Source: an uncultured Candidatus Rokubacteria bacterium (GTDB taxonomy: Bacteria; Methylomirabilota; Methylomirabilia; Rokubacteriales; DASRDR01). Taken from it: 64,000 bases of DNA. Location of the stretch: assembly GCA_963708025.1 (NCBI GenBank), contig CAVPSB010000018.1, positions 384,001-448,000 on the forward strand. The letters run 5' to 3'. Every line of letters starts with the position of its first letter. The stretch's first letter is position 1. Shown here in pieces: positions 6,356 to 26,495 of the stretch. A model generated the notes under the pieces. It ran no database searches. It was not told the DNA's origin and saw only the letters and a program-made list of their open reading frames with translations. Both the position numbers and the translations under genes were made by a program.

Positions 6356-6408
6356 CGCAGGATCCTCCGTCCGACATGCTTGCATCGGGGGTAGAGGTCA
6401 TCGACGAA

Positions 6409-6993: not shown

Positions 6994-7027
6994 GGCACGA
7001 GTATACCGCTATCCCGCCCGAAATGAG

Positions 7028-7106
7028 CCCGGACGGCAGCGCGTGCACTGAGCGGCCGGTAGGCGAGCAACGCGAGCCGTCGGCCCGCTGCACTGCAAGG
7101 TTCGAC
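7028..7106 (-). repeat. Degenerate attC-like imperfect palindrome 2
   Basis: Minus strand GTCGAAC-CTTGCAGTGCAGCGGGCCGACGG...CCGGCCGCTCAGTGCAC...GTCCGGG; related to element 1. Confidence 0.55.
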
Positions 7107-7211
7107 GGTTTTCGCCGCGTCACTCAACGACCTTTGGTACCGAGGGCCGGACGTCAATGAAGATCTCGGCGACGTATCGCGGCATCCGCCCGCGCACCAG
7201 TCTCGCCGCCG

Positions 7212-7643
7212 TCATGGCAGCAGCTCGAGCGCCCGCGTGAGACGCGGGCCGACACGGATGGCGGCGAAATCACGGCGATCCGTCGTCAGCACCCGGTAGA
7301 TGCGCCGTCGCTCAGCTACAGCGACGACTGTTCCGTCGACGAGCCCCAGGTTGAGCTTCGCGAATCTGGCGTCGAGTTCGAGGGCACGAACAATGTCGGA
7401 GGGTAGCGGCAGCTCATACTCGTACCGTGTCGCCGGATCGAAAATCTCAGCGACGAGTGTCCGCATCGCGACCCTGTTCTCCCGGAGAAAGTAGTCCACC
7501 TCGGCTAGAACGAGTCCGGGCACGATAACCAGACTCGCGGATGTCAGGATCTTCTCGTACTCAGGAAAACTCGGCTTGCCGTCTCTCGTGCTGGCGAGGC
7601 CGCGGAGGAGCCCGCCGGTGTCTGCGACGATCGGCGGACTCAA
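7212..7643 (-). CDS. PIN-domain (VapC-like) toxin
   Basis: IVADTGGL...VLAEVDY...LGLVDGTVVAVAE...VLTTDRRDF: conserved PIN acidic residues. Confidence 0.85.
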   Translation of the reverse strand: MSPPIVADTGGLLRGLASTRDGKPSFPEYEKILTSASLVIVPGLVLAEVDYFLRENRVAMRTLVAEIFDPATRYEYELPLPSDIVRALELDARFAKLNLGLVDGTVVAVAERRRIYRVLTTDRRDFAAIRVGPRLTRALELLP

Positions 7644-7794
7644 GCCTCGAGATCTCGGAAGAGTTCGGATTCATCGCCGAGTTTGTTGTCCGTCAACTCG
7701 AAGAGGCGTGTAGAGGGCGGGCGGCGGCCGGTGTAGTAGCGGGACGCCACCACCCGCAGACCCTTGCGAATGAGGGCCGAGGCATGGGCACCGG
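7640..7794 (-). pseudogene. 5'-truncated antitoxin remnant
   Basis: ASALIRKGLRVVASRYYTGRRPPSTRLFELTDNKLGDESELFRDLEA* overlaps the PIN start (TTGA). No in-frame start for the ASALIRKGL part before the tctA-like stop at 7795. Confidence 0.55.
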
Positions 7795-9819
7795 TCAGCC
7801 GCCGTAGCCGAGCCAGGCGAAGAGGTGGCCGGGCGGGAAGGGGACGCCGAGGGCCTTCTCGAAGAAGCCGTAGACGAAGACGAAGTTGAACGCGGTGAGC
7901 GCCACCGTGATCGGCCAGCGCTCCCGGGCCCCGAGCCGGAGACAGGCGAGCGTCATCACCGTGGTCCCGATCGCGAAGCCGAGCAGCCAGATCGCTGCGA
8001 AGAACCCGAGGATCCACGCGCAGACCCGGAGCCCGCGGCGCCACGCCTCTCCCGGCGCCAGGTCGGCGGTGCCGCCGGCCGCGTCGAGCGCGACGCCGCT
8101 CCGCCGGCCGGTGAGGTCGCGCGCGAGCTGCACGATCGCCAGGGCCAGGGTGGGCACGACGATTGCCCAGGGGAAGAGCCCGGCCCGGGGGCCGAACCCG
8201 CGGCTCTGCCAGAGCGCCCAGGCGAAGAGGAGCACGATCCCCAGGCCGAACGCGGTGGTGGCGTCGAGCCGCGGTCCCGGGCGCGCGAGGGCCGGCGGCC
8301 CTGCCGCGTCCGGCGCGGTGCGGGGCGCCCTCCGCCGGCGCCGGCGCTCGTTCCAGAAGGGGACGACCAAGCCGGCCGCGATCACCGCCATGAGGGCCAG
8401 CACGCCCGGACGGACGAGCCAGGCGGCGCCGTAGTTGTCGGTGGAGAGGAAGAGCTTGTTCTCGGCCAGCGGCCCCAGCACCAGGCCGAGCAGGAGCGGG
8501 GGCCGGGGCCAGCCGAGCCGCGCCATCACCCAGCCCAGCCCGCCGAACAGCAGGACCACCGCCAGGTCCTGGAAGACGTTCTTTTCGGCGAAGGCGCCGA
8601 CGTAGATCAGCGTCAGGATGAACGGCGTCAGCAGTGTCCCCCGGATCTGCGTGACCCGCGCGAGCTGGTTCATGAAGGCCAGGCAGATGGCGACGGTGAT
8701 GACGTTCGAGACCACGATCGTCCACACCATCGAGAAGGTCACCGCCAGGTGGCCCTTGGGAGCCGGCGTGAGCATCGCGGGCCCCGGGACGAGACCCTGG
8801 ATCAGGAAGGCGCCCATCAGGATCGCGGTGCCGACGCTGGCCGGCACGCCGAACGCGACCGTGGTGACGAGGCTGCCGCCCAGGGTCGAGTTGTTGGCGG
8901 CGCCGGGCCCGAGCACGCCCTCCACCCGCCCCCGGCCGAATTGCTCCCGGTTGGGTGAGCTCTGGACGGCGTGCGCGTAGGCCAGCCACTGGGTCGTCGC
9001 GGCCCCCATCCCCGGGATGATCGCGATGAACGTGCCGAGGGCGCTGCACCGGAGGACCAGCCACCAGTGGACGAACGTGTCGCGGACCCCCTGCCAGACG
9101 CCACCGAGCTTGCCGACCTCGAGCCGGGCGATGCTCGAGCCCTGGACGGCCAGGTCGATGACCTCGGGGATGGCGTAGAAGCCGATGGTGACCGGGACCA
9201 GCCCGATCCCGTCCCAGAGGAAGAGCTGACCGAAGGTGTAGCGCTGGATGCCCGAGACCGGGTCGAGGCCGATCGTCGCCAGCCACAGCCCGAGCCCGCC
9301 GGCCACCAGCCCCCGGAGGAGGGCCTCGCCGCTGAGCGAGGCGACGAACGTGATGCCGACCACGGCCAGCATGAAGAACTCCGGCGAGCCGAAGGTGAGG
9401 ACCAGCGGGCGCACGACCGGGATCGCCAGGCCGAGAACGAGGGCGCCGAAGACGGCGCCGACCAGCGAGCTCATCATCGCCGCCCCCAGCGCCCGGCCGG
9501 CCTCGCCGTTCTTGGCCATGGCGTGGCCGTCGACGATGGTGGCGGCCGAGGTCGGCTCGCCGGGAATGCCGAAGAGGATGGAGGTGATGTCGCCGGTCGT
9601 GTTGGTGACCGCGAACATGCCGAGCAGGAACGCGAACGCCTCGACGGGGTTCATCTTGAAGACGAAGGGCAGCATGAGGGCGAGCGTGGTGGGGCCACCC
9701 AGGCCGGGCAGAATCCCGACCGCGAAGCCGATGGCGATCCCGACCAGCATCAGGCCGAAGGTGGGCCAGGCGAAGACCTGGACCAGCCCCGACCAGCTGG
9801 CCTGGGCGAACTCGACTAT
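7795..9819 (-). CDS. Tripartite tricarboxylate transporter permease TctA fused to a C-terminal TctB-like domain; start 9750 (ATG) or 9819 (ATA)
   Basis: GILPGLG, ILFGIPGEPTSAATIVDGHAMAKNG, AANNS, FGVPAS, LGLVLGPLAE, followed by an extra ~150-aa multi-TM TctB-like part ending LGVPFPPG. Confidence 0.9.
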   Translation of the reverse strand: MVEFAQASWSGLVQVFAWPTFGLMLVGIAIGFAVGILPGLGGPTTLALMLPFVFKMNPVEAFAFLLGMFAVTNTTGDITSILFGIPGEPTSAATIVDGHAMAKNGEAGRALGAAMMSSLVGAVFGALVLGLAIPVVRPLVLTFGSPEFFMLAVVGITFVASLSGEALLRGLVAGGLGLWLATIGLDPVSGIQRYTFGQLFLWDGIGLVPVTIGFYAIPEVIDLAVQGSSIARLEVGKLGGVWQGVRDTFVHWWLVLRCSALGTFIAIIPGMGAATTQWLAYAHAVQSSPNREQFGRGRVEGVLGPGAANNSTLGGSLVTTVAFGVPASVGTAILMGAFLIQGLVPGPAMLTPAPKGHLAVTFSMVWTIVVSNVITVAICLAFMNQLARVTQIRGTLLTPFILTLIYVGAFAEKNVFQDLAVVLLFGGLGWVMARLGWPRPPLLLGLVLGPLAENKLFLSTDNYGAAWLVRPGVLALMAVIAAGLVVPFWNERRRRRRAPRTAPDAAGPPALARPGPRLDATTAFGLGIVLLFAWALWQSRGFGPRAGLFPWAIVVPTLALAIVQLARDLTGRRSGVALDAAGGTADLAPGEAWRRGLRVCAWILGFFAAIWLLGFAIGTTVMTLACLRLGARERWPITVALTAFNFVFVYGFFEKALGVPFPPGHLFAWLGYGG

Positions 9820-10838
9820 CGGAGGAGCCCCTTGAGCTTGGCGGCCACGGCCGGGTCGAGGCGGAACAGCTCCTCGACCAGACGCTCCAGCTCCTCCCCG
9901 CCGACCGGGTCAACGTCCAGCTTGGCCTGCCGGGCGTCGGCGAGGAACTCGGGGTCGCGCAGCGTCTCGATGAAGGCGGTCCGGAGCACCTGCACCCGGT
10001 CGGGCGGGGTGCCGGGCGGGAGCGCGTAGAGGCGGCTGATCGTGGTGGGGACGATGACCGCCGCCCGCAGGAGCTGCCGGGCCTCCTCGGTCCGGACCAG
10101 GTCGAGCGCCAGCGGGACCCGGGGCAGGTCGGGCAGCGGCTTCTCGGTGACCTGGAGCACGATGGTGATCTCGCCGGCGTCCAGCGCCTTGCGCCAGGTG
10201 ACCTTGACCGACTCCCACTGCCAGCAGCCGCCAGAGACCTCGCCGGACTCGGCGGCCAGCCGGATCTCGGCGGTGCCCTTGTATCCCCGCACGAGCTGGA
10301 TGGGCAGGCCGGCGGCCTGGAGGACGCGCGCGGTGTCGTGCGTGGTGTCTCCCGGGCCGACCCCGCCGAGCTTCACCGGCGTCTTGGCCGCCATCCACTG
10401 CTCGGCCGTCGCGATCCCGCTCGCCCGGGTCAGGGCGCAGACCGTGTTGTCTCGCACCGGGATGCCGAGCCACTGGAACTTCCGGGCGTCGAACTCGATC
10501 CCGTCGCGCCCGAGGAGCTGGCCGACGAGCTGGTTGCCGTGGAAGTTGACGATGGTGAGGCCGTCGGGCCGGGCGACCTTGAAGGCGTGGTTGGCGGCGA
10601 TCAGGCTGGCCGCCCCCGGCATGTTCTCCACGACGACGGCGGGCCGGCCGGCGACGTGCTTGGCGAGGTGCCGGCCGATGGTCCGGGAGTAGGTGTCGAA
10701 GCCGCCGCCGGCCGTGAACCCGACGACGATGCGAATGGTCTTGCCCTCGAAGAAGCTGGGCTGGGGCTCGGCCGGCCGGACGGCGGCGAGGGCGGCGAGC
10801 AGCGCGACGACGGCGGTGGCGCGAGCGGGCCTAGTCAT
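9816..10838 (-). CDS. TctC/Bug periplasmic substrate-binding protein
   Basis: Signal peptide; IVVGFTAGGGFD, VENMPGA, PDGLTI, GYKGTAE, PPGTP. Confidence 0.9.
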   Translation of the reverse strand: MTRPARATAVVALLAALAAVRPAEPQPSFFEGKTIRIVVGFTAGGGFDTYSRTIGRHLAKHVAGRPAVVVENMPGAASLIAANHAFKVARPDGLTIVNFHGNQLVGQLLGRDGIEFDARKFQWLGIPVRDNTVCALTRASGIATAEQWMAAKTPVKLGGVGPGDTTHDTARVLQAAGLPIQLVRGYKGTAEIRLAAESGEVSGGCWQWESVKVTWRKALDAGEITIVLQVTEKPLPDLPRVPLALDLVRTEEARQLLRAAVIVPTTISRLYALPPGTPPDRVQVLRTAFIETLRDPEFLADARQAKLDVDPVGGEELERLVEELFRLDPAVAAKLKGLLR

Positions 10839-11862
10839 AGAGGATCGTCCTCAGCCGGGCGATGACCGGCGCTTCCAGGGTGAACAGCCGCTGAACGACG
10901 CGCTCGAGCTCGTCTCCCGGCACCGGCTCGATCTCGAGCTTGGCCTTCTCGGCCTCGGCGAGGAAGGCCGGGTCCCGGAGGGTGGCGGCGAACGCCTGGC
11001 GCACGAGCTGCACGCGGTCCTTCGGCGTCCCCGGCGGCAGGGTGAGCGAGCGGACGATCGCGCTGTCGGTGTGGACCGCGACCTCCAGGGTGCGGCGCGC
11101 CTCGTCGGTCTTCGCGAGGTCGATGGCGAGCGGGACGCCGGTCAGCTCGGGATGACTTTTTGGCGCGACCTGCAGCACCACCGCCACCTCGCCGGTGTCC
11201 AGCGCCTTCCGCCAGGTGGCGCGGATCGAGCCCCAGTTGAAGCACACGCCGGCCAGCTCGCCGGACTCGATGGCGAGCCGGATGTCGGCGGTGCCCTTGT
11301 AGCCGGTGACGAGCTGGATCGGCAGCCCGAGGGCGGCCTTGACCGCGCGCGTCCCGTTGTCGGGCGTGCTGGCGCCCGGCGCGACCCCGCCCATCTTGAC
11401 CGGGGTCGGCGCCGCCATCCACTTGTCCACGCTCGTGATCCCGCTGGCCTTCGCCATCGCGCACACGACGTGGTCGAAGGCGGGGGCGCCGACGAACTCG
11501 AACTTCCGGGCGTCGAACTCGATCCCCTTCTGGCCCAGGACCTGACCGAGGAACAGGCCGCCGATGAAGTGGCCGATGGTCAGCCCGTCGGGCTTCGCCA
11601 CCTTGTAGAGGTGGTTGGCCGCGATGAGGCTGCCGGCGCCCGGCATGTTCTCGACGATGACGGTGGGGGCGCCGGGGAGATGCCGGCCGAGGTGGCGGCC
11701 GAGCGTGCGCGCGAACGCGTCGAAGCCGCCGCCGGCCGAGAAGCCGACGATGATCCGGACCGTCTTGCCGCGGTAGAAGTCGTCCTGGGCGAGCGCGGCG
11801 CCCGGGGCGACGCCGAGCGTCAGGATCAGGAGCCGCAGCCATCCGAGCCCTCGTCTCCTCAT
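10831..11862 (-). CDS. TctC/Bug periplasmic substrate-binding protein (paralogue)
   Basis: ATG at 11862 overlaps the upstream stop; IIVGFSAGGGFD, VENMPGAGS, GYKGTAD. Confidence 0.9.
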   Translation of the reverse strand: MRRRGLGWLRLLILTLGVAPGAALAQDDFYRGKTVRIIVGFSAGGGFDAFARTLGRHLGRHLPGAPTVIVENMPGAGSLIAANHLYKVAKPDGLTIGHFIGGLFLGQVLGQKGIEFDARKFEFVGAPAFDHVVCAMAKASGITSVDKWMAAPTPVKMGGVAPGASTPDNGTRAVKAALGLPIQLVTGYKGTADIRLAIESGELAGVCFNWGSIRATWRKALDTGEVAVVLQVAPKSHPELTGVPLAIDLAKTDEARRTLEVAVHTDSAIVRSLTLPPGTPKDRVQLVRQAFAATLRDPAFLAEAEKAKLEIEPVPGDELERVVQRLFTLEAPVIARLRTILYD

Positions 11863-14138
11863 CGGATCTCTCCCTTCGCGGCCTGGATCGCCCGCCACAC
11901 CCGCTCGGCCGTGAGCGGCAGGTCCGTGACCCGCACGCCCACCGCCCGGGTGACCGCGTTGGCGATGGCCGGGGCGGTGGGGAGCAGGCCGCTCTCCCCG
12001 ATGCCCTTGGCGCCATACGGCCCCGGCCCGTCGCCGTTCTCGATCAGGATGCTCCGGTACTCCGCCGGCAGGTCCCCCATGACCGGCACCCGGTAGTCGA
12101 TGAGCGAGGGGTTCAGGAGCTGGCCGTCCTCGTACACCATCTGCTCGTAGAAGGTGTGGCCGAGCCCCATCATCGCCCCCCCCTCCTCCTGGGCGTGGCA
12201 CTCGCGCGGGTTGATGGCCCGGCCGATGTCCGCCACCGAGACGTAGCGCAGCACCGTCACCACCCCCGTCGCCTCGTCCACCTCGACCTCGGCCGCCGCC
12301 ATCCCGACCTCCCAGAACGGTGCCTCGCCGCCGAGCGGCGCGTGCCCCCGCTCGCCGCGGTAGGTCCCGCGCCCGATCAGCTCGCCGCCCGGCATGCCGA
12401 AGTGTCCGGCCAGCGCCTGGGCGTACGCCAGCTCGCCGGCCGCGCCGACGATCCGCCCGTCGAGGAGCGCCAGCGCCGCCCGGTCGCTCCCGAGCTGGCG
12501 CGCGCCCAGGGCCAGGAGCTGGTCCCGCACGTCGCGGGCAGCGGCGAGGACGGCGAGGCCCATCAAGGTCGTCGAGCGGCTCGCGCTCGTCGCCTGATCG
12601 TAGGGGCTCATGCCCAGCTCCGAGGCGGCGACGCGCACCCAGCCGAGCGGGAGCGCCAGCTCCTCGGCCACGATCTGGGAGAGGACGGTGCGGCCGCCCT
12701 GGCCGCACTCCACGGTGCCGGTGAGGAGCGTCGCGCTCCCGTCGGCGTGGAGCCGCACCATCGCGCTCGACACCGAGGGGGCCAGCGGCGCCTTGATGAC
12801 GCAGGCGAGTCCCTTGCCGCGGCCGGGCGCCGGGGCGGGGTCGTGCCAGCCGACGGCGGCGGCGGCTGTACGGAGGCCTTCCGCGAAGTCGCAGTCGATC
12901 GGGAGGTCGCCCGCGATGAACGTCTCGCCGCGCCCGAGGAGGTTCCGGAGGCGCAGCTCGAGCGGGTCGAGGCCGAGCCGCTCGGCGATCACGTCCATCT
13001 GCGACTCGTAGGCCCAGGCGAGCTGGGGGACGCCGTAGCCGCGGAAGGCCACGCTGACCACCGTGTTGGTGTAGACGCCGTAGGCGGTGATGCGGACGTG
13101 GGGGATGCGGTAGGGGCCGGTCGCGGTGTAGGCCGACTTCTGCACGACGCGGGGACCGACGTCGGCGTAGGCGCCGAGCTGGTAGTGGATCTCGGCCTCG
13201 CGCGCCACCAGCCGGCCGTCGCGCCGGACGCCGGTCCGGAGCCGGTAGCGGACGGCGGCCCGCCGGACCGACTTGAACGCCTCCTCCGCGGTGAGGGCCA
13301 GCCGCACCGGCCGCTTGACGGCGGTGGCGAGGGCGATCACCAGCGGCTCGATCTTGGTGTAGGACTTGTTGCCGTAGGCGGCCCCCAGGTACGGCACGAT
13401 GATCTGGAGGCGTGCCAGCGGCAGCCCGAACATCTCCGCCAGCTCCTTCCGGACGGGGAACGGGTGCTGGGTGGAGGCCCACAGGGTGACCCCCTGGCTG
13501 TCGACGCGCGCGATCGCGCAGTGGGGCTCCAGCGAGACGTGGTGGGCCATCGGGAAGGTGTAGGTCTGCTCCACCACCAGGTCGGCCTCGGCGAAGGCCC
13601 GGTCCGGCTCCCCGCGCTCGTAGCGGTAGTGGTGGCAGACGTTGGTCCCCGCGATGGGGCGGAGGGCCCCGAGGTCCCGGAAATGCCCGGCCGGCCGGGG
13701 CCGCTCGTGGAGCAGGGGCGCGCCGGGGGCGAGTGCCTCGTCGAGGGTGGTCACGGAGGGCAGCTCCGCGTACCGGACGTCGATCAGCCCGAGCGCCGCC
13801 TCGGCGGCCGCCGCGGTGTCGGCCACGACGGCGACGACCGGCTCGCCCGCGTAGCGGATCACGCCGTCGGCCAGGAGCGGCTGGTCCTTGAACGCGGGAC
13901 CGTAGTAGAGGTCCCGGACGGGCAGGTCGGCCGCGGCCAGGACCGCGAGGACGCCGGGGGCGCGGGCCGCGCGGGTCGGGTCCACGCCGAGGAGCCGCGC
14001 GTGGGGCACGGGGCTCCGCCACAGCTTGGCGTGGACCATGCCCGGCACCGCCAGGTCGGTGATGAAGCGCGCGCGCCCGGTGGCCTTGGCCGGGGTGTCA
14101 ACGCGCGGGGCGTCGGTGCCGACGGTCCCGAGGCTCAC
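11859..14138 (-). CDS. Xanthine dehydrogenase-family molybdopterin-binding large subunit
   Basis: RSPVPHA, LEPH, GAAYGNK, AFRGYGVPQ, ECGQG, TSASRST, AKGIGE. Confidence 0.92.
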   Translation of the reverse strand: MSLGTVGTDAPRVDTPAKATGRARFITDLAVPGMVHAKLWRSPVPHARLLGVDPTRAARAPGVLAVLAAADLPVRDLYYGPAFKDQPLLADGVIRYAGEPVVAVVADTAAAAEAALGLIDVRYAELPSVTTLDEALAPGAPLLHERPRPAGHFRDLGALRPIAGTNVCHHYRYERGEPDRAFAEADLVVEQTYTFPMAHHVSLEPHCAIARVDSQGVTLWASTQHPFPVRKELAEMFGLPLARLQIIVPYLGAAYGNKSYTKIEPLVIALATAVKRPVRLALTAEEAFKSVRRAAVRYRLRTGVRRDGRLVAREAEIHYQLGAYADVGPRVVQKSAYTATGPYRIPHVRITAYGVYTNTVVSVAFRGYGVPQLAWAYESQMDVIAERLGLDPLELRLRNLLGRGETFIAGDLPIDCDFAEGLRTAAAAVGWHDPAPAPGRGKGLACVIKAPLAPSVSSAMVRLHADGSATLLTGTVECGQGGRTVLSQIVAEELALPLGWVRVAASELGMSPYDQATSASRSTTLMGLAVLAAARDVRDQLLALGARQLGSDRAALALLDGRIVGAAGELAYAQALAGHFGMPGGELIGRGTYRGERGHAPLGGEAPFWEVGMAAAEVEVDEATGVVTVLRYVSVADIGRAINPRECHAQEEGGAMMGLGHTFYEQMVYEDGQLLNPSLIDYRVPVMGDLPAEYRSILIENGDGPGPYGAKGIGESGLLPTAPAIANAVTRAVGVRVTDLPLTAERVWRAIQAAKGEIR

Positions 14139-16528
14139 GGCGGCGGCGCTCCTCGGCGTGCTTCCCGCAGGGCGCGCCAGACCCGCTCCGGTGTCATCGG
14201 CAGCTCAGTGAGGCGCACGCCCGTCGCGTGGGCGATCGCGTTGCCGATGGCGGGCGCGACGCAGAAGGTCCCGCTCTCCCCGACGCCCTTGGCGCCGAAG
14301 GGGCCGGGCCCGTCGGCGTTCTCGACCAGGATCGTCTCGAAGGCGTCCGGCAGGTCGGCGAAGGTCGGGAGCCGGTAGTCGATCAGGCCGGGGTTCAGGA
14401 GCTGGCCCTGCTCGCCGGCGCGCGCCTCGAAGAGGGCGGGGCCGAGCCCCATGATCGCCGCGCCCTCGTCCTGGGCCGCGCACTCGCGGGGGTTGATGGC
14501 CTGCCCCACGTCGGCCGCCGACACGTAGCGGCGGACCCGGACCGTCCCGGTCTCCGGATCGACCTCGACCTCCGCGGCGCCCATGCCGGTCTCCCAGAAG
14601 GCGGTGGCGCCGCCCAGGCTCCCCGACCACCGGGTCGGCACGAACGACCCGACCCCGGTCACCTCGCCGCCGACCAGGCCGAAGTGGCCGCGGATCACCT
14701 CGGCCACCGTGAGCGCGCCGACCCGGCCCTCGCGAAGGTCGAGGCCAGCGGGGTCCGTCCCGAGCAGCCCGGCCGCCAGCCCCAGGAGCTGCCCGCGCGC
14801 GTCGCGGGCGGCGGCCTGGACGGCCAGCCCCATCAGGGTCGTCGAGCGGCTCGCGCTCGTGCCGTGGTCGAACGGCGTGAGGGAGGTGTCGGGGGCCCCG
14901 ACGACGACGGCCTCGAACGGGACGCCGAGCGTCTCGGCGGCGATCTGGGCCAGCGCGGTCCGCGCCCCCTGGCCCACCTCCACGGTCCCGGCCAGGAGGC
15001 TCACGCTGCCGTCGGCGTGGACGCGGACGATGGCGGTCGAGACCGTGTGCGTCCCGCCGCCGTCCTTCATCGCGCACGCCAGCCCCCGGCCGCGCCCGGG
15101 GGCGCCTGTCGCGCCCCGGTCGAGCGCGCGCGCCACCGCCAGGAGGCCCTCGGCCATGTCGCCGTCCATCGGGGTGTCGCCGGCCACGTACTCCTCGCCG
15201 CGCTCGAGGAGGTTCCGGAGGCGCAGCTCGAGCGGATCGAGGCCGAGCCGCTCGGCGATCGCGTCCATCTGCGACTCCGAGGCCCAGGTCACCTGGGGGA
15301 CGCCGTACCCGCGGTAGGCGCCGGCCGGCACGTTGTTGGTGTAGACGCATCGGGCGCCGATGCGGAGCCCGGGGATGCGGTACGGCCCGAGGGCGCGGGA
15401 GCCGGCCTTGGTGGCCACGCGGGGCCCGATGTCCGCGTAGGCGCCGGTGTCGAGGACGACGTCGGACTCGCGCCCGAGGAGCGTCCCGTCCCGCCGGACG
15501 GCGGTCCGGAGCCGCACCGTCACCGCGTGGCGGCTGATCGTCCGGGCGCTCTCCTCCAGGGAGAGCGCGAGCCGCACGGGCCGCTGGACGCGCGCGGCGA
15601 GCGCGGCGGCGAGCGGCTCGATCTTGGTGTAGCACTTCCCTCCGAAGGCGCCGCCGATCAGCGGGACCACCACCTGGACGTGAGAGAGCGGCAGCCCGAA
15701 GACCTCCGCCAGCTCCTTCCGGACCGGGAACGGGTGCTGGGTCCCAGCCCAGACCGTGACGCCGTCCGCGTCCACCCGCGCGAGGGCGCAGTGGGGCTCG
15801 AGGGCGTGGTGCGACAGCGCCGGGTAGCGGTAGACGTCCTCCACGACGAGGTCGGCCTCGGCGAACGCCCGCACCAGGTCGCCGCGCTCGTACTGGTAGT
15901 ACTGGCAGACGTTGGTGCCGGGGACGGGCCGGAGCCCGGACAGGTCGCGGAAGTGGCCGGCGCGGTCCAGCGTGGGATGGATCAGCGGGGCGTCCGCCGC
16001 CAGCGCCGCCTCCGCGGTCGTCGCGGCCGGCAGCTCCCGGTACCGGACGTCGAGCACCCCCAGCGCGGCCGCGGCGCGGGCCTCCGTCTCGGCGACGACG
16101 GCGACCACCGGCTCGCCGGCGTAGCGGATCACCTCGTGGGCGAGGATCGGCTGGTCCTTGAAGGCGGGCCCGTAGTGAAGGCGCGTCACGGGCAGGTCGG
16201 CCGCCGTGCAGACGGCTACCACGCCGGGCATCGCGGCCGCGCGGGCGGCGTCGACGCCGAGGAGCCGGGCGTGCGGCACGGGGCTCCGCCAGAGGCGGGC
16301 GTGGACCATCCCGGGCAGCGCGAGGTCGGTGACGTAGCGGGCGGCGCCCGTCACCTTGTCGCCGGCGTCGAGCCGGGGGACCGAGCGCCCGACGATCGAG
16401 ACCCCCCCGACTCTTCGACGGCCTTCGGCCTTTGGCGGCCCCTCCCCACCGGTCGACGGCCTCCGGCCTTTGGCCGGGGGGAGGGGCGGCGTGCTTGCCG
16501 CCGACTGACGGCCAGGCGATAGCGTCAC
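14135..16528 (-). CDS. Xanthine dehydrogenase-family molybdopterin-binding large subunit (paralogue); start uncertain, N-terminus carries a repeat element
   Basis: GGAFGGK, AYRGYGVPQ, EVGQG, AKGVGE. Homology begins near 16400 (SIVGRSVPRLD); the nearest upstream in-frame start is GTG 16528. Confidence 0.9.
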   Translation of the reverse strand: MTLSPGRQSAASTPPLPPAKGRRPSTGGEGPPKAEGRRRVGGVSIVGRSVPRLDAGDKVTGAARYVTDLALPGMVHARLWRSPVPHARLLGVDAARAAAMPGVVAVCTAADLPVTRLHYGPAFKDQPILAHEVIRYAGEPVVAVVAETEARAAAALGVLDVRYRELPAATTAEAALAADAPLIHPTLDRAGHFRDLSGLRPVPGTNVCQYYQYERGDLVRAFAEADLVVEDVYRYPALSHHALEPHCALARVDADGVTVWAGTQHPFPVRKELAEVFGLPLSHVQVVVPLIGGAFGGKCYTKIEPLAAALAARVQRPVRLALSLEESARTISRHAVTVRLRTAVRRDGTLLGRESDVVLDTGAYADIGPRVATKAGSRALGPYRIPGLRIGARCVYTNNVPAGAYRGYGVPQVTWASESQMDAIAERLGLDPLELRLRNLLERGEEYVAGDTPMDGDMAEGLLAVARALDRGATGAPGRGRGLACAMKDGGGTHTVSTAIVRVHADGSVSLLAGTVEVGQGARTALAQIAAETLGVPFEAVVVGAPDTSLTPFDHGTSASRSTTLMGLAVQAAARDARGQLLGLAAGLLGTDPAGLDLREGRVGALTVAEVIRGHFGLVGGEVTGVGSFVPTRWSGSLGGATAFWETGMGAAEVEVDPETGTVRVRRYVSAADVGQAINPRECAAQDEGAAIMGLGPALFEARAGEQGQLLNPGLIDYRLPTFADLPDAFETILVENADGPGPFGAKGVGESGTFCVAPAIGNAIAHATGVRLTELPMTPERVWRALREARRGAPPP
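16402..16486. repeat. Dispersed GC-rich repeat (GACGGCCTTCGGCC hairpin module, two copies)
   Basis: Modules at 16417 and 16455; highly similar to 17940-18015. Confidence 0.8.
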
Positions 16529-16534
16529 TTGCGT

Positions 16535-17032
16535 TCAGCCGCCATCGCCTGTCCCCGCGCCGGGTGCCAGGCGCCGGGAGGCGGCCAGGATCGCGTCCAG
16601 GATGCGCTGGTAGCCGGTGCACCGGCAGATGTTGCCGCGCATGTAGTGCTTGACCTCGGCCGGGGTCGGCGCCGGGATCTCGCCGAGCAGGGCGACGGTG
16701 GCCATGATCATGCCCGGCGTGCAGAAGCCGCACTGGAGCGCGCCGTGCTCGACGAACGCCTCCTGGATGGGGTGGAGCTCCTCGCCGCGGGCCAGGCCCT
16801 CGACGGTGCGGACGTGCTTCCCCCGCGCCTCGAAGGCCAGGGTCGTGCAGGCGCTCACCGGCTGATCGTCGAGGAGCACGGTGCAGGCGCCGCAGACCTG
16901 GACGTCGCACGACTTCTTCACACCCAGGAGTCCGAGGCGATCGCGGAGACACTCGATCAGCGTCTCCCAGGCCGGCACGGTCAGCTCGTGCCGCTCCCCG
17001 TTGACCGTCACCGTCATCGCCACCTCTCTCAT
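16535..17032 (-). CDS. (2Fe-2S)-binding small subunit, CoxS/XdhC-like
   Basis: [14 protein letters not shown]...[18 protein letters not shown]. Confidence 0.93.
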
Positions 17033-17910
17033 CGGGACTCTTCGCGGACGCCGAGCCCGGCCAGGGCCTGGTGGAACGCGCGCGCCAGGAGGACGCCGAC
17101 CAGGTGCGCCTTGTACTCCGCCGAGCCGTGGAGGTCGGTGACGGCGTCGGCCGCGCGACCGGCGACCCGGCCCGCCTCGGCGAGGGCCGCCCGGCTCTCG
17201 CCGAGGGCCTTGCCCTCGAGGAGCGCCTCGGCCTCGCGCATCCGGCGCGGCACCGGACCGACGCAGCCCACCGCGATCCGGACGCCGGCGACGCGCCCGT
17301 CGTCGACCGTCACGGCGACCGCGACCCCGACCGAGGGCCGCTCGAGGATGCCGAGCTTGAGGTAGGCGGCGGCCGACCGCGGCGGGGGCGGCGGCACCAC
17401 GACCTCGGTCAGGATCTCGTCACCCTCCAGGCAGGTCTCGAAGGGGCCGACGAAGAGGGCTTCCAGCGGGATCGTCCGCTCGCCGCCGGCCCGCTCGATG
17501 CGCGCCGTCGCGTCGAAGACCTCCAGCAGGGTCCCGGGGTCCGCGTGCGGCTCGGCGAAGCAGAGGTTGCCGGCCAGCGTCCCCATGGTGCGCACCCGGA
17601 CGTTGGCCACGTCCCCTTCCATCCGGGCGAGGGCCGGGAAGTGCTCGCGCACGATCGGGTCCCGCTCGATGGCGCGATGGGTGGTGGCGCCGCCGATCCG
17701 GAGGCTGCCGTCGGGGCCGAGGCGAAGGCCGGCCAGGCCGGCGATGGTCTTCACGTTGACGAGGTAGTCGTAGTGAGCCAGCCCTTCCTTCATCACCAGG
17801 AGCAGCTCGGTGCCCCCCGCGTAGAGCCGGGCGGCGTCGCCGTGCCGCGCCAGCAGCTCCGAGGCCTCGGCCACCGAGGCCGGCTCGACCAGATCGAACG
17901 GTCTCAGCAT
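17029..17910 (-). CDS. FAD-binding medium subunit, CoxM/CutM-like
   Basis: AGGTEL, IGGATT, VRTMGTLAGN, DLHGSAEYK. Confidence 0.93.
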   Translation of the reverse strand: MLRPFDLVEPASVAEASELLARHGDAARLYAGGTELLLVMKEGLAHYDYLVNVKTIAGLAGLRLGPDGSLRIGGATTHRAIERDPIVREHFPALARMEGDVANVRVRTMGTLAGNLCFAEPHADPGTLLEVFDATARIERAGGERTIPLEALFVGPFETCLEGDEILTEVVVPPPPPRSAAAYLKLGILERPSVGVAVAVTVDDGRVAGVRIAVGCVGPVPRRMREAEALLEGKALGESRAALAEAGRVAGRAADAVTDLHGSAEYKAHLVGVLLARAFHQALAGLGVREESR

Positions 17911-17914
17911 GTTG

Positions 17915-18030
17915 TTCGGGACCTCCCGCCTACCCGATCCTTCGACGGCCTTCGGCCTCTGGCCCCCCTCCCCCGACCGTTGGACGGCCTTCGGCCTGTG
18001 GCGGGGGGGAGGGGGGTGCCGGAGAGACCG
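17915..18030. repeat. Dispersed modular repeat, full-length copy
   Basis: TTCGGGACCTCCCGCC end plus two GACGGCCTTCGGCC modules (17944, 17983) and a G-rich end; overlaps the last codons of the CoxG domain. Confidence 0.8.
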
Positions 18031-20023
18031 ATTCCTTTACGGGCTGTCTGTCCTGGCCTTCGAGCTGCGACCGCATCGCCGCTGCGAAGCGGTCCACGAT
18101 CTCCGCCCCCTTGCGCACGATGACGCTATGCCCGAGCGTCCCCAGCTTTCCCAGCACGGCGATCTCGGCGGCCAGTCGCAGCACGGTCCCGCCCTCGGCG
18201 GCGTCGAGCGATACGTCGAGGTCGACCTTGACGATGCCGTCGACGCTGGCGTCGCGGCCGCCGGCCCGCGCGCGCAGGCGCTCCGGCGGCTGGACGTCCA
18301 GGACCTCGATCTCCAGCGGGAACTGGACCTTGAACGGCCCCACCCGCTCGGCGACGACGGCGGCGTAGCGCTTCCCGTCCTCGAGGACGCGCACCTCCCG
18401 CGCCCCCGGGAGGCACGCCGCCAGCCGCGGCACGTCCCAGAGAAACGCCCAGACCGCCTCCCGCGGCGCTCCGATCCGGATCTCGCGCTCGACCTTCACG
18501 GCTTCCCGGGACTCCGGGAGCGGCGCCGGGCGGAAGACGAGCGACTTGATCACCACGGGGACGATGCCCGAGACCGGCAGGGGCTCGCCGACGTCGATGT
18601 AGTCGAAGGTGGAGAGGTCCAGCTCGTCCACGGCCACCAGGTCCGGGCCGGCGCCCAGCTCCTCGACCAGGAGCCGCCCCACGAGGCGGGCGATGTCCCG
18701 GTCGAAGGCGAGCACGAGCGGCGCCGCCCGGCGCCCCAGCGCCGCCACCAGGCCCTCGCCGAGCGCCCGCAGCTCCTCGTAGCTCACCCCGAACCCCCAC
18801 CGGATCGCCAGCGCGATCGGGCCCTCGAGCCGCTCGGGGTCGTGGCCGTCCATCGCCGCCCGCACCGCCGCGGCGACCCCGGCCGCGCTCAGCGGGTCGC
18901 CCAGGCGGACCGGGAAGACCGGCAGGTTCCGGAGCTCGAGGCGGCCCGGTCCCGGGTGGAAGATCGTGCTGCCGCTGACCTGGACCGTGTACTGCGCGGC
19001 CCCGATGACCGTGGCGCGGATCCCCTCGTCGGGCTGGACCACGAGCGTGCCGAGCGAGTGCCCGTCGAGGCGCCGCCGGATCGCCTCGCCGAGCGGCCGG
19101 CCCAGGTCGCCGAAGCCGGCGCGCTCCCGGCCGTAGACGTACTCGGCGACGCCGCCGGAGAACATCAGGGCGGCGCTCGCCGCCGGGCCGGAGAGCGGCT
19201 CGGTGTGCATGAGGCGCCGGGTCAGGGGCGAGAGCGGGCGGCCCTCGATCACCTCGAAGAGGCAGTCGACCATCCGGGCGACCATGCCCTGGGCGAGCGG
19301 CGGGTCGACGCGGCCACCGACCGCGAGACGCCCGCCGGCGGCCTCGGCCAGCCAGGCGCCGGCCTCCTCGAGGCGGGCGACGCGGCCGTCCTCGTGGGCG
19401 AGGAGGCGGCCGCCCACGTTGAGCACGGCCGTGTCGACGACCTCCCCGCCCCGGCAGACCGCCAGCTTGGTCGTTCCCCCGCCGACGTCAACGTTGAGCA
19501 CGGTGCCGCCCTCCCGCGAGCGGGCGACGGCGCCGGAGCCGTGGGCGGCCATGATGGCCTCCAGCCGGGGGCCGGCGGCCGCGCACACGAACCGGCCGCC
19601 GTCCCGCGCGAAGAGCCGGAGGATCGCCTCGGCGTTCGTCTTCTTCGCCGCCTCCCCGGTGACGATCACGGCGCCGGTGTCCACCGCCTCGCGGGCGAGA
19701 CCGGCCTCCCGGTACGTCGCGTCGATGAACGCGCCCAGCCCCTCGGCGTCGATGGTGAGGGGATCGCGGTAGGGGGTCAGGAGGATCGGCGACTGGTGGA
19801 CGACCTCGCGCTCGACGACGCGGAACCGGCTGGAGAGGCTCATCCCCAGCCGGCGGAGGACGAGGCGCGAGAAGGTGAGGTGCGAGGTCGAGGAGCCGAT
19901 GTCGATACCGACGCTCGAGAGCTCGATCCGCTCCGCCGCCCAGACCGGATCCGACTCGTCCGGCAGCCCGTGGGGATCGCCCTCGTGGTCCCCGTGCTCG
20001 TGGGGATGGGGGAAGTCGTGCAT
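17930..20023 (-). CDS. EutA-like (ethanolamine ammonia-lyase reactivase family, ASKHA ATPase) protein in frame with a C-terminal CoxG/SRPBCC domain
   Basis: SVGIDIGSSTSHLTFSRL, SPILLTPY, TGAVIVTGEA, NVDVGGGTTK, FSGGVAE, IRATVIGA, VPVVIKSLVF, then with no stop VKVEREIRIGAPREAVWAFLWD...CLPGA (CoxG, GTG near 18499). Confidence 0.85.
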   Translation of the reverse strand: MHDFPHPHEHGDHEGDPHGLPDESDPVWAAERIELSSVGIDIGSSTSHLTFSRLVLRRLGMSLSSRFRVVEREVVHQSPILLTPYRDPLTIDAEGLGAFIDATYREAGLAREAVDTGAVIVTGEAAKKTNAEAILRLFARDGGRFVCAAAGPRLEAIMAAHGSGAVARSREGGTVLNVDVGGGTTKLAVCRGGEVVDTAVLNVGGRLLAHEDGRVARLEEAGAWLAEAAGGRLAVGGRVDPPLAQGMVARMVDCLFEVIEGRPLSPLTRRLMHTEPLSGPAASAALMFSGGVAEYVYGRERAGFGDLGRPLGEAIRRRLDGHSLGTLVVQPDEGIRATVIGAAQYTVQVSGSTIFHPGPGRLELRNLPVFPVRLGDPLSAAGVAAAVRAAMDGHDPERLEGPIALAIRWGFGVSYEELRALGEGLVAALGRRAAPLVLAFDRDIARLVGRLLVEELGAGPDLVAVDELDLSTFDYIDVGEPLPVSGIVPVVIKSLVFRPAPLPESREAVKVEREIRIGAPREAVWAFLWDVPRLAACLPGAREVRVLEDGKRYAAVVAERVGPFKVQFPLEIEVLDVQPPERLRARAGGRDASVDGIVKVDLDVSLDAAEGGTVLRLAAEIAVLGKLGTLGHSVIVRKGAEIVDRFAAAMRSQLEGQDRQPVKESVSPAPPSPPPQAEGRPTVGGGGPEAEGRRRIG

Positions 20024-21087
20024 CAGCGACGCGCGACGGCCGGCATGCGGCTCTTCACCCCCACCTTGCCGAGCTCGGTCTCGAACAGCTCGCGGACCGC
20101 CGGGTCCTCGTCCTCGTACTCGATCTGGTTGCCGCCGGTGGCCCGGTCCTGGGCGAGCGTGTCGTGCTTGTCGTCCATCTTGTGCTTGACGCTCCCCCAG
20201 CGGATCGCCAGGTAGCGGGCAGGGGCGGCCCCGGCGTTGAAGTGCTGGTGCCACCAGTAGTCGGGCGGCACGAAGACGCTCCCCTCGTGCCAGTCCACCT
20301 TCGTCCACCGGGCACCGTCCGGCCAGAGCAGGGAATAGCCGGTGCCGCTCAGGGTGATCACGTTGGCCCCCGGCCCGTGGCGGTGCGCCTTCTTGTAGGT
20401 CCCGACCGGGAACTCCGAGATGTGGGCGATCAGCGTGTTGTTGGCCAGCTCGAACATGACGTTGCTGCCGCCGGCGCCGCGCTCCTTCCACTCCATCAGC
20501 TGGAACCGCGCGACGTCGGGGATGAAGTTCGCCTCCCAGATCCGGCTGGCCAGGAACGTGCCCTTGCCGCTGAACGTCTCGGCCTCTCCGGTGAAGCGGT
20601 CGCGGAAGACGAAGGGGTTGTCGAAGACGAACTCCTGGTTGTGGAAGAGGTTCATGACCAGCGGCGCCGTGGTCACCGCGTAGTAGCGGGCGGCCTCCGC
20701 TCCCGAGGCGTTGAAGTGCTGGTAGAACGCGTTCAGGGGGATCGCGAAGAGGCTGCCGGCCTGCCACTCGAAGGTGACCCGGGGGCCATTCTCGATCCAC
20801 ACCGCGGTGGCGCCCCGCCCGGCCAGGACGTAGACGACCTCTTCGTAGAGGTGGCGCTGCGGCGCCAGCTTGCCGCCGGGGGGGATCTCGCACACGTAGG
20901 CGGCGTTGGTCCCCCCGGTGCCCTCCATGTCGATGAAGGCCGCGCGTCCGCCGGTGCGCGCCCACGGCTGGACCTTCACCGTGCGGAGGTCCTCGACGTG
21001 GAAGCCGCTCACCACCGGCAGCCCTTCGGCAGCCTGCCACTGCTGATAGCTGGTGCGCATCGTGGCCGGGCTGTTCGAGATCGGCAT
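20023..21087 (-). CDS. Bicupin protein, distantly gentisate 1,2-dioxygenase-like
   Basis: Two cupin repeats: PQRHLYEEVVYVLAGRG...YQHFN and KKAHRHGPGA...WWHQHFN. Stop overlaps the EutA-like ATG. Confidence 0.85.
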   Translation of the reverse strand: MPISNSPATMRTSYQQWQAAEGLPVVSGFHVEDLRTVKVQPWARTGGRAAFIDMEGTGGTNAAYVCEIPPGGKLAPQRHLYEEVVYVLAGRGATAVWIENGPRVTFEWQAGSLFAIPLNAFYQHFNASGAEAARYYAVTTAPLVMNLFHNQEFVFDNPFVFRDRFTGEAETFSGKGTFLASRIWEANFIPDVARFQLMEWKERGAGGSNVMFELANNTLIAHISEFPVGTYKKAHRHGPGANVITLSGTGYSLLWPDGARWTKVDWHEGSVFVPPDYWWHQHFNAGAAPARYLAIRWGSVKHKMDDKHDTLAQDRATGGNQIEYEDEDPAVRELFETELGKVGVKSRMPAVARR

Positions 21088-21127
21088 GCACGCCTCCCGA
21101 GGCTGACTGGTCGGAGCCGAGCGCTTT

Positions 21128-21157
21128 ATGGTAGGGTACTGCGCGCGAAAGCGTCAA
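21128..21157 (-). promoter_or_regulatory. Sigma70-like promoter for the cupin/EutA/Mo-hydroxylase operon
   Basis: TTGACG-N18-TACCAT on the minus strand, 40 nt upstream of ATG 21087, which has a GGAGG RBS. Confidence 0.55.
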
Positions 21158-21171
21158 GGCGACCCCGACCC

Positions 21172-22140
21172 ATGGCGACACTCCATCTGACGCTGGCCTG
21201 TGGCGACTACGACCGCGCGCTCGCGCTCAAGACCGGCGCCGTGCGGCCGGACGGCGTCGAGCTCGAGGTGCTGAATCTCACCCCGGAAGAGACGTTCTAT
21301 CGCATGGGTCGGTTCCGCGAGTTCGACGTCTCGGAGTTCTCGCTGTCCACCTACACCGTGCTCCGGGGTCGTGGCGAACCCATCGTCGCCATCCCGGTGT
21401 TCCCGTCGTTCATGTTCCGCCACGGCGCCGTCTTCGTGCGCGACGACGCGGGCATCCGGGAGCCCGGCGACCTCCGCGGCAAGCGCGTCGGCGTGCCGAA
21501 GTACCACATGACCGCCGCGGTGTGGGTGCGGGGCATCCTCGAGGACGAGTACGGGCTGGCGCCCAGGGACTGCCTCTGGTTCGAGGGCGGCGAGGGAACG
21601 AAGGTCAAGGAGGTGGACGTGACGCTGCCGCCGGAGATCCGGCGGGAGACGGTGGCTGGCGACCGGAACCTCGGGGACATGGTGGCCGCGGGCGAGCTGG
21701 ACGCCTTCATCGGCGCCCGCCGGCCCGCCGCCTTCGGCACCGGGCGCGTCCGCCGGCTCTTCCCCGATTTTCGGCGGGCCGAGCGGGCGTACTACGAGAA
21801 GACCAGGATCTTTCCGATCATGCACACCGTCGTGCTGCGGGAGGAGCTGGCCCGGGAGCATCCGTGGCTCCCCCAGAGCCTCTACCGCGCCTTCGTCGAG
21901 GCCAAGCTCCGCGCCTACCGGCGCCTGGACGAGTCGGCCGCCCTGCCGTACGCGGTGCCGTGGCTCATGGCCGAGGTCGAGGAAACGCGGGCGCTCATGG
22001 GCGACGACCCGTTCCCCTACGGCGTCGCCCGGAACCGCAAGACCCTGGAGACGCTGGCCGGCTACACCTTCCGCCAGGGGCTCGCCCCGCGCCGCCTGAC
22101 GATCGAGGAGATGTTCTCGGAGTCGACCCTCGGCACCTAA
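21172..22140 (+). CDS. 4,5-dihydroxyphthalate decarboxylase-like protein (periplasmic-binding-protein fold)
   Basis: LTLACGDYDR, FDVSEFSLS, IPVFPSFMFRH, LRGKRVGVPKYHMTAAVWVRGIL, IFPIMH, PYGVARNR. Confidence 0.85.
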   Translation: MATLHLTLACGDYDRALALKTGAVRPDGVELEVLNLTPEETFYRMGRFREFDVSEFSLSTYTVLRGRGEPIVAIPVFPSFMFRHGAVFVRDDAGIREPGDLRGKRVGVPKYHMTAAVWVRGILEDEYGLAPRDCLWFEGGEGTKVKEVDVTLPPEIRRETVAGDRNLGDMVAAGELDAFIGARRPAAFGTGRVRRLFPDFRRAERAYYEKTRIFPIMHTVVLREELAREHPWLPQSLYRAFVEAKLRAYRRLDESAALPYAVPWLMAEVEETRALMGDDPFPYGVARNRKTLETLAGYTFRQGLAPRRLTIEEMFSESTLGT

Positions 22141-22263
22141 GATCCGGCGTCCCAGTGCCGGCGCCTCCGATTCCCCCGCCGGTCGGTTTCTCGCAACCCT
22201 CTGGCTCTGGTCGCGCGGCCCTGGTGTTCCGCTTCGAGCCGCGGCTTCGCCGCGGCCTCCGAG

Positions 22264-22305
22264 GGGGGGGCATCGGGGGGGTCTTCCGAGACCCCTCCGA
22301 AGGTC
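22264..22305. repeat. Short hairpin repeat; second copy at 48999-49040
   Basis: GGGGGGCATCGGGGGGGTCTTCCGAGACCCCTCCGAAG, abutting a minus-strand stop codon. Confidence 0.7.
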
Positions 22306-23136: not shown

Positions 23137-23228
23137 GGCTGCAGATCCTAGCAGCAGCGCGGAGGTGACACCAGGGCCCTCGGCCGGCCCCCCTCGGCGG
23201 CTATAATCGCCGCGGGACTGGGTCAGGA

Positions 23229-24221: not shown

Positions 24222-24292
24222 CTGCCCGCTCGGCCAGGACGCCGCCCGTCCGATCTTCCGGGCGCTGCTCCCGGCCGACGGACGCGCGGGGC

Positions 24293-24859: not shown

Positions 24860-24911
24860 GGCGTCAGGGCGATTATCTCATGGTTACGCTGGGCTCCCCG
24901 ACCGAGCAGGG

Positions 24912-26479: not shown

Positions 26480-26495
26480 CGACTTCCCGAAGACG

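Follow-up and report, generated by a model that had tools for sequence, protein, structure and literature searches.

A conserved pair of a His-cluster bicupin and a EutA-like ATPase points to a possible ATP-driven helper for cupin enzymes in an aromatic-acid context

Within a 64,000-nucleotide stretch of the genome of an uncultured Candidatus Rokubacteria bacterium (contig CAVPSB010000018.1, positions 384,001 to 448,000; the window is this whole stretch, with a G+C content of about 73%), an array of nine genes opens with a bicupin, that is, a protein of two cupin domains, followed by an ATPase that resembles EutA. Our comparison of this array with its relatives reveals that the conserved unit is the bicupin/EutA-like pair and not the nine genes. 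EutA reactivates the B12-dependent ethanolamine ammonia-lyase by exchanging damaged cobalamin at the expense of ATP, and reactivases of this type are standard companions of B12 radical enzymes; what is new here is a EutA-family helper whose client would be a bicupin without B12. That the bicupin is the partner of the ATPase, one of the options raised in a preliminary description of this DNA, is supported by adjacency of the genes, co-occurrence across genomes, an overlap of stop and start codons and a predicted complex. We posit that a gentisate-dioxygenase-like metal bicupin is kept active by an ATP-driven activase or reactivase of the EutA family, an explanation to which we give an even chance.

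A locus scan that took one genome per species returned 597 confirmed places, the best 80 of which were retained together with up to 10 kb of flanking sequence; these 80 loci contain 85 EutA-like genes and were searched by tblastn with the proteins of the window. A bicupin homologue lies less than 300 bp from the EutA-like gene in 49 of the 85 cases and farther off in the same locus in 3, while 7 are cut by a contig end and 26 have none. Carriers are found in Methylomirabilota, Chloroflexota, Alpha-, Beta- and Gammaproteobacteria (including two cultured Marinobacter, M. manganoxydans and M. denitrificans, at loci L076 and L078), Acidobacteriota, Actinomycetota and Myxococcota. Among 151 sampled genomes of the phylum, which are related and hence not independent, EutA-like matches (E <= 1e-40) occur in eight and bicupin matches in seven, and the same seven have both; the eighth EutA-like match is partial, at 42% identity. 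Three of the seven have the two genes well separated, at a distance of 7-10 kb in G007 and G018 and on different contigs in G022, and the co-occurrence therefore rests on more than adjacency. In the window itself the bicupin stop and the EutA-like start overlap by one nucleotide (TGATG). The open-access literature yielded no paper bearing on this pairing, subscription journals being outside its coverage.

The prediction of a complex between the EutA-like protein and the cupin, a check proposed in the preliminary description, came out in favour of the pair, with a score of 0.65 (0.65, 0.67 and 0.65 in the runs) against 0.00 for the best of three controls, contact agreement of at least 55% between runs and a partner pLDDT (predicted local distance difference test) of at least 83. 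Of solved complexes, 116 of 157 attain the mark of this test, as do 2 of 215 mismatched pairs, counts that hold only roughly here because the alignments of the ATPase (26 rows) and the bicupin (28 rows) were both custom-built. We know of no solved complex of such a kind, so that a pass from a memorised structure seems unlikely. In the model, the C-terminal alpha/beta domain of the ATPase (residues 353, 412-419 and 442-455) sits on the N-terminal cupin (71-73, 91-95, 103-109, 125-130 and 173), and the interface includes residues that are invariant in their respective clades, namely T353, D443 and E455 of the ATPase and G92, E107, F125, N126 and G129 of the bicupin. The prediction thus supports physical binding of the two proteins.

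By family membership alone, the ATPase could be an ordinary EutA that serves an ethanolamine ammonia-lyase encoded elsewhere, its place beside a bicupin being functionally meaningless. Its match to Pfam PF06277 is full length (E 6.9e-115, 385 bits, profile positions 2-474 of 475), its identity to E. coli EutA (b2451) is 36% over the full length (E 5e-71), and public annotations label its homologues EutA. However, it scores 315, 271, 218 and 198 bits with the NCBIfam EutA equivalogs NF007992, NF007993, NF007991 and NF007994, whose cut-offs of 598, 769, 799 and 952 are not reached. The source genome (8.17 Mb in 49 contigs, 99.67% complete) has one EutA-family gene above cut-off and, over its whole length, no match to EutB (PF06751) or EutC (PF05985); tblastn with E. 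coli EutB and EutC likewise gave no match in any of the 80 loci. E. coli EutA, the sole canonical sequence included in our tree, is set apart by a very long branch from all 86 members of the clade, a placement as outgroup that is indicative only. Together with the presence of both proteins in the same seven genomes of the phylum sample, these results make an ordinary EutA, or a chance adjacency, extremely unlikely in our estimation, and they support the view that the EutA-like ATPase differs from canonical EutA. The earlier proposal of a system without eutBC holds in the genome, in the 80 loci and in the missed equivalog cut-offs, and its corollary, a client other than ethanolamine ammonia-lyase, gains a concrete candidate in the bicupin. 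As for the neighbourhood which that proposal anticipated for the clade, the lack of eutBC is borne out in all 80 loci; a bicupin that always adjoins is not. In 14 named control genomes, the EutA family model scores in five (above cut-off in four) and EutB in E. coli only, so that well-studied bacteria, too, may often carry a EutA-family gene and no eutB.

Of 8,000 candidates scored against the EutA-like protein, 7,610 are homologues at E <= 0.001, and the nearest of the matches listed come from Methylomirabilota/Rokubacteria, Binatia, Chloroflexota and 'Deltaproteobacteria' metagenome bins. Its ATP-binding-type motifs DIGSSTSH, DVGGGT and SGGV are invariant within the clade alignment, where C147 is the only invariant cysteine. 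An acidic and His-rich N-terminal extension (residues 1-30) is found clade-wide, with a conserved [DE]E-x-[HD]-P-x-W at its end; E. coli EutA aligns only with the part that follows, and one may speculate about a role of the extension in metal binding. The model of the protein (pLDDT 80) has the ASKHA fold, and a fold search gave generic ASKHA matches and no close solved relative, the nearest being exopolyphosphatase, HgdC-type activators, the benzoyl-CoA-reductase-type ATPase subunit and MreB.

The AlphaFold2 (AF2) model of the bicupin (pLDDT 90) comprises two beta-barrels. Its C-terminal cupin carries a His cluster, H235, H237, H280 and H282, that is invariant in 28 of 28 aligned sequences and in 21 of 21 of a second set; the metal motif of the N-terminal cupin is partly degenerate, and the tail GGxQIEYEDEDP is conserved. 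The best sequence match is gentisate 1,2-dioxygenase (3bu7), a weak one with E 2.8e-5 over about 60 residues, in which the HRH...WHxH-N of the bicupin aligns with the HRH...WHEH of the metal-binding cupin. The NCBIfam model MabB gives 41 bits and so does not reach its cut-off of 650. Similarly, a fold search with the model returned generic bicupin folds and no close solved relative, with template-modelling (TM) scores of about 0.46-0.5 for MncA, oxalate decarboxylase, vicilins and gentisate dioxygenase, and the ESM Atlas matches are 'cupin domain-containing' clusters only. Homologues with E <= 0.001 number 6,949 among 8,000 scored candidates. One of them is named 'ethanolamine ammonia lyase-activating protein' by NCBI, a name that was not found in the open-access literature searched.

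Whole-genome searches for bicupins were made in five genomes (G001-G005) from one clade of 24 EutA-like genes, that of Binatia and relatives. Near-full-length bicupins (E <= 1e-56) number 9-10 each in G001-G004 and 59 in G005 among the matches listed, beyond which 13 more exist; with weak single-cupin matches included, the totals are 19, 18, 18, 18 and 90. EutA-like matches number 4, 4, 4, 4 and 10, and of the ten in G005 two are halves of one split gene and four carry one stop codon. Three of the four EutA-like genes of G001 adjoin a bicupin. G005, the 4.5-Mb Binatia genome of locus L018, has tandem arrays of three bicupins, for example at C1:589433-592849, 153958-159127 and 3562123-3565516. 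In two of the 80 loci (L034 and L050), four tandem bicupins are followed by one ATPase. Among 20 bicupin paralogues sampled from G005 (36-56% identity), H235, H237, H280 and H282 are present in all 20, H79 in 19 and E82 in 18, with variation at positions 77, 124, 232 and 242. This pattern is as expected for a diversifying enzyme family with one shared helper.

The same numbers bear on a different role for the ATPase, that of catalytic subunit in a true two-component ATP-dependent enzyme, in which the ASKHA protein would activate the substrate, for instance by phosphorylating a carboxylate or enol, and the bicupin would complete the reaction. Adjacency, co-occurrence and the predicted complex fit such an enzyme equally well, the ASKHA superfamily includes kinases as well as ATP-coupled activators (the HgdC type and the benzoyl-CoA-reductase-type ATPase subunit), and the nucleotide motifs of the ATPase are invariant. 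Yet its closest characterised relative by sequence, E. coli EutA at 36%, is a reactivase and not a kinase; the 9-59 bicupins per 4-10 ATPases and the 22 stand-alone Binatia ATPase genes described below fit a shared helper better; and the predicted contact is made through the C-terminal domain (412-455) and not the nucleotide cleft. HgdC-type activators rely on the chemistry of a bridging [4Fe-4S] cluster, and a sole invariant cysteine, C147, argues against an arrangement of that kind. We therefore favour a chaperone over a catalytic-subunit role, on the grounds of the reactivase relationship, the many-to-one ratio and the contact through the C-terminal domain, and think a two-component enzyme rather unlikely.

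Several points weigh against a bicupin maintained by a EutA-like activase. The type of reaction is uncertain because the likeness to gentisate dioxygenase is weak (E 2.8e-5; TM about 0.46-0.5), and the need of the bicupin for reactivation is itself putative. Physical binding is a prediction from a model, and the cupin that this model places at the interface, the N-terminal one, is that with the degenerate metal motif. No characterised member of either family was found in the open-access literature. In the clade of 24 EutA-like genes, moreover, 22 have no flanking bicupin and 2 are cut by contig ends, their neighbours being unrelated (DUF4175, a TPR-peptidase and, in two loci, TauD). That a one-to-many relation explains these 22 genes is something we infer, and a shared catalytic component would be compatible with a many-to-one ratio as well.

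In the window, the pair heads an array that is laid out as follows; gene calls are from Pfam scans, and junctions were read from the sequence and from tables of open reading frames (ORFs).

20023-21087, minus strand: bicupin, 354 amino acids, with two Cupin_2 stretches (Pfam) and an AF2 model
18500-20023, minus strand: EutA-like ASKHA ATPase (Pfam EutA; 36% identity to E. coli EutA, full length)
17930-18499, minus strand: CoxG (SRPBCC) domain or gene (Pfam CoxG; match to 8uds_D, E 1.2e-8)
17930-20023, minus strand: EutA-CoxG as a single ORF of 697 amino acids, EutA domain at residues 34-498 and CoxG domain at about 514-655
17029-17910, minus strand: FAD subunit M of the xanthine dehydrogenase (XDH) family (Pfam FAD_binding_5 and CO_deh_flav_C)
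16535-17032, minus strand: XDH-family 2x[2Fe-2S] subunit S (Pfam Fer2 and Fer2_2)
14135-16528, minus strand: Mo-cofactor large subunit L1, with GGAFGGK motif (hammerhead, MoCoBD_1 and MoCoBD_2)
11859-14138, minus strand: Mo-cofactor large subunit L2, with GAAYGNK motif (hammerhead, MoCoBD_1 and MoCoBD_2)
10831-11862, minus strand: TctC-family binding protein 1 (TctC1), 343 amino acids (TctC 34.5 bits, cut-off 27)
9816-10838, minus strand: TctC-family binding protein 2 (TctC2; TctC 37 bits, cut-off 27)
7795-9750, minus strand: fused TctA-TctB membrane component (TctA E 2.5e-120; TctB E 1.6e-11)
21172-22140, plus strand: 4,5-dihydroxyphthalate decarboxylase homologue (9jp7_A, E 6.8e-76, residues 3-320 of 322)
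21128-21157, minus strand: sigma-70-like promoter candidate, TTGACG-18-TACCAT, 9 of 12 matches, in the divergent intergenic region

All nine genes of the array named in the preliminary description are present on the minus strand with abutting or overlapping ends, and the divergent gene that it called 4,5-dihydroxyphthalate decarboxylase-like does match a solved enzyme over its full length. Downstream of the bicupin/EutA-like overlap, a gap of 19 nt separates the EutA-CoxG ORF from M; M and S overlap by 4 nt, S and L1 are 6 nt apart, L1 and L2 overlap by 4 nt, L2 and TctC1 overlap in ATGA, TctC1 and TctC2 overlap by about 8 nt, and 65 nt lie between TctC2 and TctA-TctB. The postulated single promoter finds a counterpart in the one sigma-70-like site of positions 7000-22500 (0.2 expected from shuffles), which falls in the 84-bp divergent intergenic region. 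The tripartite tricarboxylate transporter (TTT) is complete, with TctA and TctB fused and TctC twice; TctC1 and TctC2 are 59% identical, and the N-terminus of TctC1 is hydrophobic and signal-like. An ORF at 10835-12016, considered for TctC1, was rejected as a wrong-frame shadow with an Arg/Pro-rich translation and no family match, TctC1 being the ORF at 10831-11862.

Just downstream of the operon lies a PIN-domain ORF (7212-7643, E 2.4e-6), and farther on a non-ribosomal peptide synthetase module (42-5846) with condensation, adenylation, carrier and second condensation domains and ACT-domain matches near its C-terminus, after which a small single-cupin protein is encoded on the opposite strand (5843-6385). 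Beyond the decarboxylase gene, positions 22306-27725 encode an aldo/keto reductase, two luciferase-like (F420-type) oxidoreductases and a 409-residue protein of the quinolinate-phosphoribosyltransferase family, a family also found near the bicupin/EutA-like pair in locus L070.

The molybdenum hydroxylase encoded behind the pair has complete M, S and L domain sets by Pfam. L1 and L2 are 62% identical, L2 having GAAYGNK in place of the GGAFGGK of L1, and both keep the C-terminal glutamate of what we take to be the G-x-G-E motif, with its presumed role. The best solved relative of L1 is the alpha subunit of 4-hydroxybenzoyl-CoA reductase (1rm6_A, E 8.4e-99); no NCBIfam equivalog is reached, the best being the same alpha subunit at 497 bits against a cut-off of 995. 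Two L paralogues behind a single M and S, both retained in the related loci L003 and L096, suggest either a heteromeric L1/L2 enzyme or two isoenzymes that share M and S. CoxG, presumably a quinone adaptor, matches the CoxG of the solved Mo-CO dehydrogenase complex (8uds_D, E 1.2e-8).

The preliminary description had raised this molybdoenzyme as the other candidate client, the ATPase loading or repairing its cofactor, and the EutA-CoxG fusion could be taken as a Rosetta-stone signal of such a link. EutA and CoxG do form one ORF directly upstream of M-S-L1-L2 in the window; the whole operon recurs in the same gene order and with about 80-86% protein identity in L003 (genome G121) and L096 (genome G112), both of the same family, and in L007 a large-subunit gene follows the EutA-like gene. 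However, any XDH-family match in the flanks is confined to 6 of the 80 loci (L003, L007, L032, L042, L082 and, weakly, L051), only L003 of these being syntenic. Among close relatives, L005, with a EutA-like protein 78% identical, has no Mo block next to the pair, and L004 lacks it too, with a TctC gene directly behind the EutA-like gene. The Mo block is therefore a lineage-specific addition. The linkage claimed for the array thus divides: that of bicupin and EutA-like ATPase is conserved elsewhere, that of CoxG-M-S-L1-L2 is syntenic in two same-family genomes only, and a nine-gene system built around a molybdoenzyme client is not sustained.

The fusion fares no better as a signal. In the 120 best EutA homologues listed, coverage of the fused EutA-CoxG query never exceeds 73%, and in the relatives the fusion is gone by a difference of 1 or 11 nt. 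The coxG gene has a GTG start of its own at 18499-18497, in frame with EutA in the source assembly; L003 and L096 encode the two separately, and in L003, where the window is shorter by 11 nt, the EutA TGA overlaps the coxG GTG. We compared four soil runs with the window, all of which provided contigs of relatives. Contigs of about 96% identity, one per run in three of them, lack one letter at 18503 (depths 9.78/9.78 in X1, 8.78/8.78 in X7 and 7.29/33.9 in X2), and without this base EutA reads '...REP stop', its TGA overlapping the coxG GTG start. The EutA-CoxG gene of the preliminary description is thus a single ORF in the source assembly, but one that hinges on base 18503: the fusion comes down to a single base that alters the frame, through recent mutation or misassembly, and therefore gives no evidence for a functional link between EutA and the molybdoenzyme. 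A molybdoenzyme client is in our judgement very unlikely. Separately, a GC-rich repeat resembling repetitive extragenic palindromes, with core GGCCGAAGGCCGTCGAAG, has 4 matches against 0.02 expected, at 16405-16480, 17930-18005 and 57418-57435; its translation supplies the C-terminal tail of CoxG and some 40 residues by which L1 is extended at its N-terminus. The four soil runs show summed contig depths of 1100-2300 over 17941-18022, against about 10 on the flanks, and the repeat is therefore a high-copy element spread across many contigs.

Across all loci, ORF clustering leaves the decarboxylase, TctC and TctA as the only recurrent real neighbours of the pair besides the bicupin itself, the other clusters being in many cases antisense shadow ORFs or Binatia synteny. 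The decarboxylase homologue is found in 16 of the 80 loci and a TctC or TctA match in 16. Pfam scans of 13 loci add carboxylate transporters of the MFS, TTT and BenE families, Amidohydro_2, class II aldolase, aldehyde dehydrogenase, glyoxalase-type proteins and dienelactone hydrolase. In an Acetobacteraceae locus (L057:6106-15156), the genes stand in the order aldehyde dehydrogenase, SDR, TctC, EutA-like ATPase, bicupin, PcaL-like fusion of alpha/beta-hydrolase and CMD, PcaH and PcaG, the last two being protocatechuate 3,4-dioxygenase subunits (beta and alpha, respectively). Similarly, in Methylomirabilota relatives the pair stands with a GntR-UbiD-CoA ligase-UbiX set (L005:1752-9067) or near a GntR-UbiD-CoA-transferase III (doubled)-UbiX set (L094 and L095), sets whose UbiD members are UbiD-like decarboxylases and whose UbiX member is a UbiX-like flavoprotein, and which we take to resemble the phthaloyl-CoA decarboxylase systems of anaerobic phthalate degradation. 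The decarboxylase homologue and this presumed likeness therefore point to a context of aromatic, phthalate-like (di)carboxylates, as far as gene content can tell, and the aromatic-carboxylate setting suggested at the outset stands. General Pfam scans of the window ORFs, without a search aimed at them, gave no match to a Rieske dioxygenase or a cis-diol dehydrogenase.

The following mechanism would accommodate these observations. The bicupin would be a metal-dependent enzyme with a gentisate-dioxygenase-like HxH...HxH site in its C-terminal barrel, and would act on a hydroxylated carboxylate of aromatic or heteroaromatic type, with ring cleavage as the likeliest reaction. The EutA-family ASKHA ATPase is predicted to bind the bicupin through its own C-terminal domain, and may open it to load a metal centre or to exchange an inactivated one or a trapped ligand, much as EutA acts on B12-dependent ethanolamine ammonia-lyase, although the client here would be free of B12. 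In the lineage of the window, this module appears to be joined to a TTT importer, a quinone-linked Mo-hydroxylase (CoxG, M, S and two L) and the 4,5-dihydroxyphthalate decarboxylase homologue. A plausible order is uptake, hydroxylation, decarboxylation and ring cleavage of a phthalate-like or pyridine-dicarboxylate-like substrate: an aromatic or N-heteroaromatic dicarboxylate would enter through the TTT system and be hydroxylated by the Mo-hydroxylase, whose two L subunits may mean two rounds of hydroxylation or two substrates, with electrons passing to quinone via CoxG; the PhtD-like enzyme would take off one carboxyl group; and the hydroxy-aromatic acid so formed would be cleaved or otherwise converted by the bicupin, whose metal centre the EutA-like ATPase, docked on it, would load or restore with the use of ATP.

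A broader form of this proposal, which we offer tentatively and hold to be somewhat doubtful, is that EutA-family ATPases are not specific to B12 enzymes and that a large clade of them is the obligatory activase or metal-centre reactivase of a huge His-cluster bicupin family, numbering thousands of members and as many as about 59 paralogues in a single Binatia genome, that diversifies aromatic-acid catabolism; bolder still would be an ATP-coupled aromatic transformation beyond known cupins. If an ATP-driven helper does maintain the bicupin, such enzyme maintenance would be new for cupin metalloenzymes, the chaperone principle of EutA-type reactivases would extend to a new class of clients, and thousands of annotations as 'EutA' or 'ethanolamine ammonia lyase-activating protein' would be corrected. 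It would also provide a handle on a heavily expanded enzyme family of uncultured soil phyla (Methylomirabilota, Binatia, Chloroflexota) that is apparently linked to the breakdown of aromatic or phthalate-like acids, and the two cultured Marinobacter carriers make the hypothesis directly testable.

Among known systems, phthalate catabolic gene sets resemble the present one in that the window decarboxylase is a close homologue of a solved enzyme and that UbiD, CoA-ligase or CoA-transferase and UbiX genes stand beside the pair in relatives. XDH-family Mo-hydroxylases with CoxG (1rm6; 8uem/8uds) share with the window the M, S and L domains, the CoxG match and, in 1rm6_A, the nearest relative of L1; in contrast to them, the window has two full-length L paralogues per one M and one S. 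Gentisate 1,2-dioxygenase-type bicupins are alike in their two cupins and in a His-only HxH...H metal site, and the window bicupin has aromatic-carboxylate neighbours. The likeness is nevertheless marginal, the fold match being no better than those to oxalate decarboxylase, MncA and vicilins, and the window bicupin stands apart in having its His cluster in the C-terminal barrel and a conserved acidic tail; to our knowledge, no enzyme of the gentisate dioxygenase type has an ATPase partner. Finally, E. coli EutA shares with the EutA-like ATPase full-length homology, the Pfam family and the aligned nucleotide-motif regions DIGxxT, DxGGGT and SGG, and the ATP-driven helper action that we propose is modelled on it. 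In contrast to E. coli EutA, the EutA-like protein has about 30 extra acidic, His-rich residues at its N-terminus, clade residues at or beside the predicted interface are changed in the E. coli protein (W409 to A, G412 to P and E455 to Q), and its partner would be a bicupin rather than a B12 enzyme.

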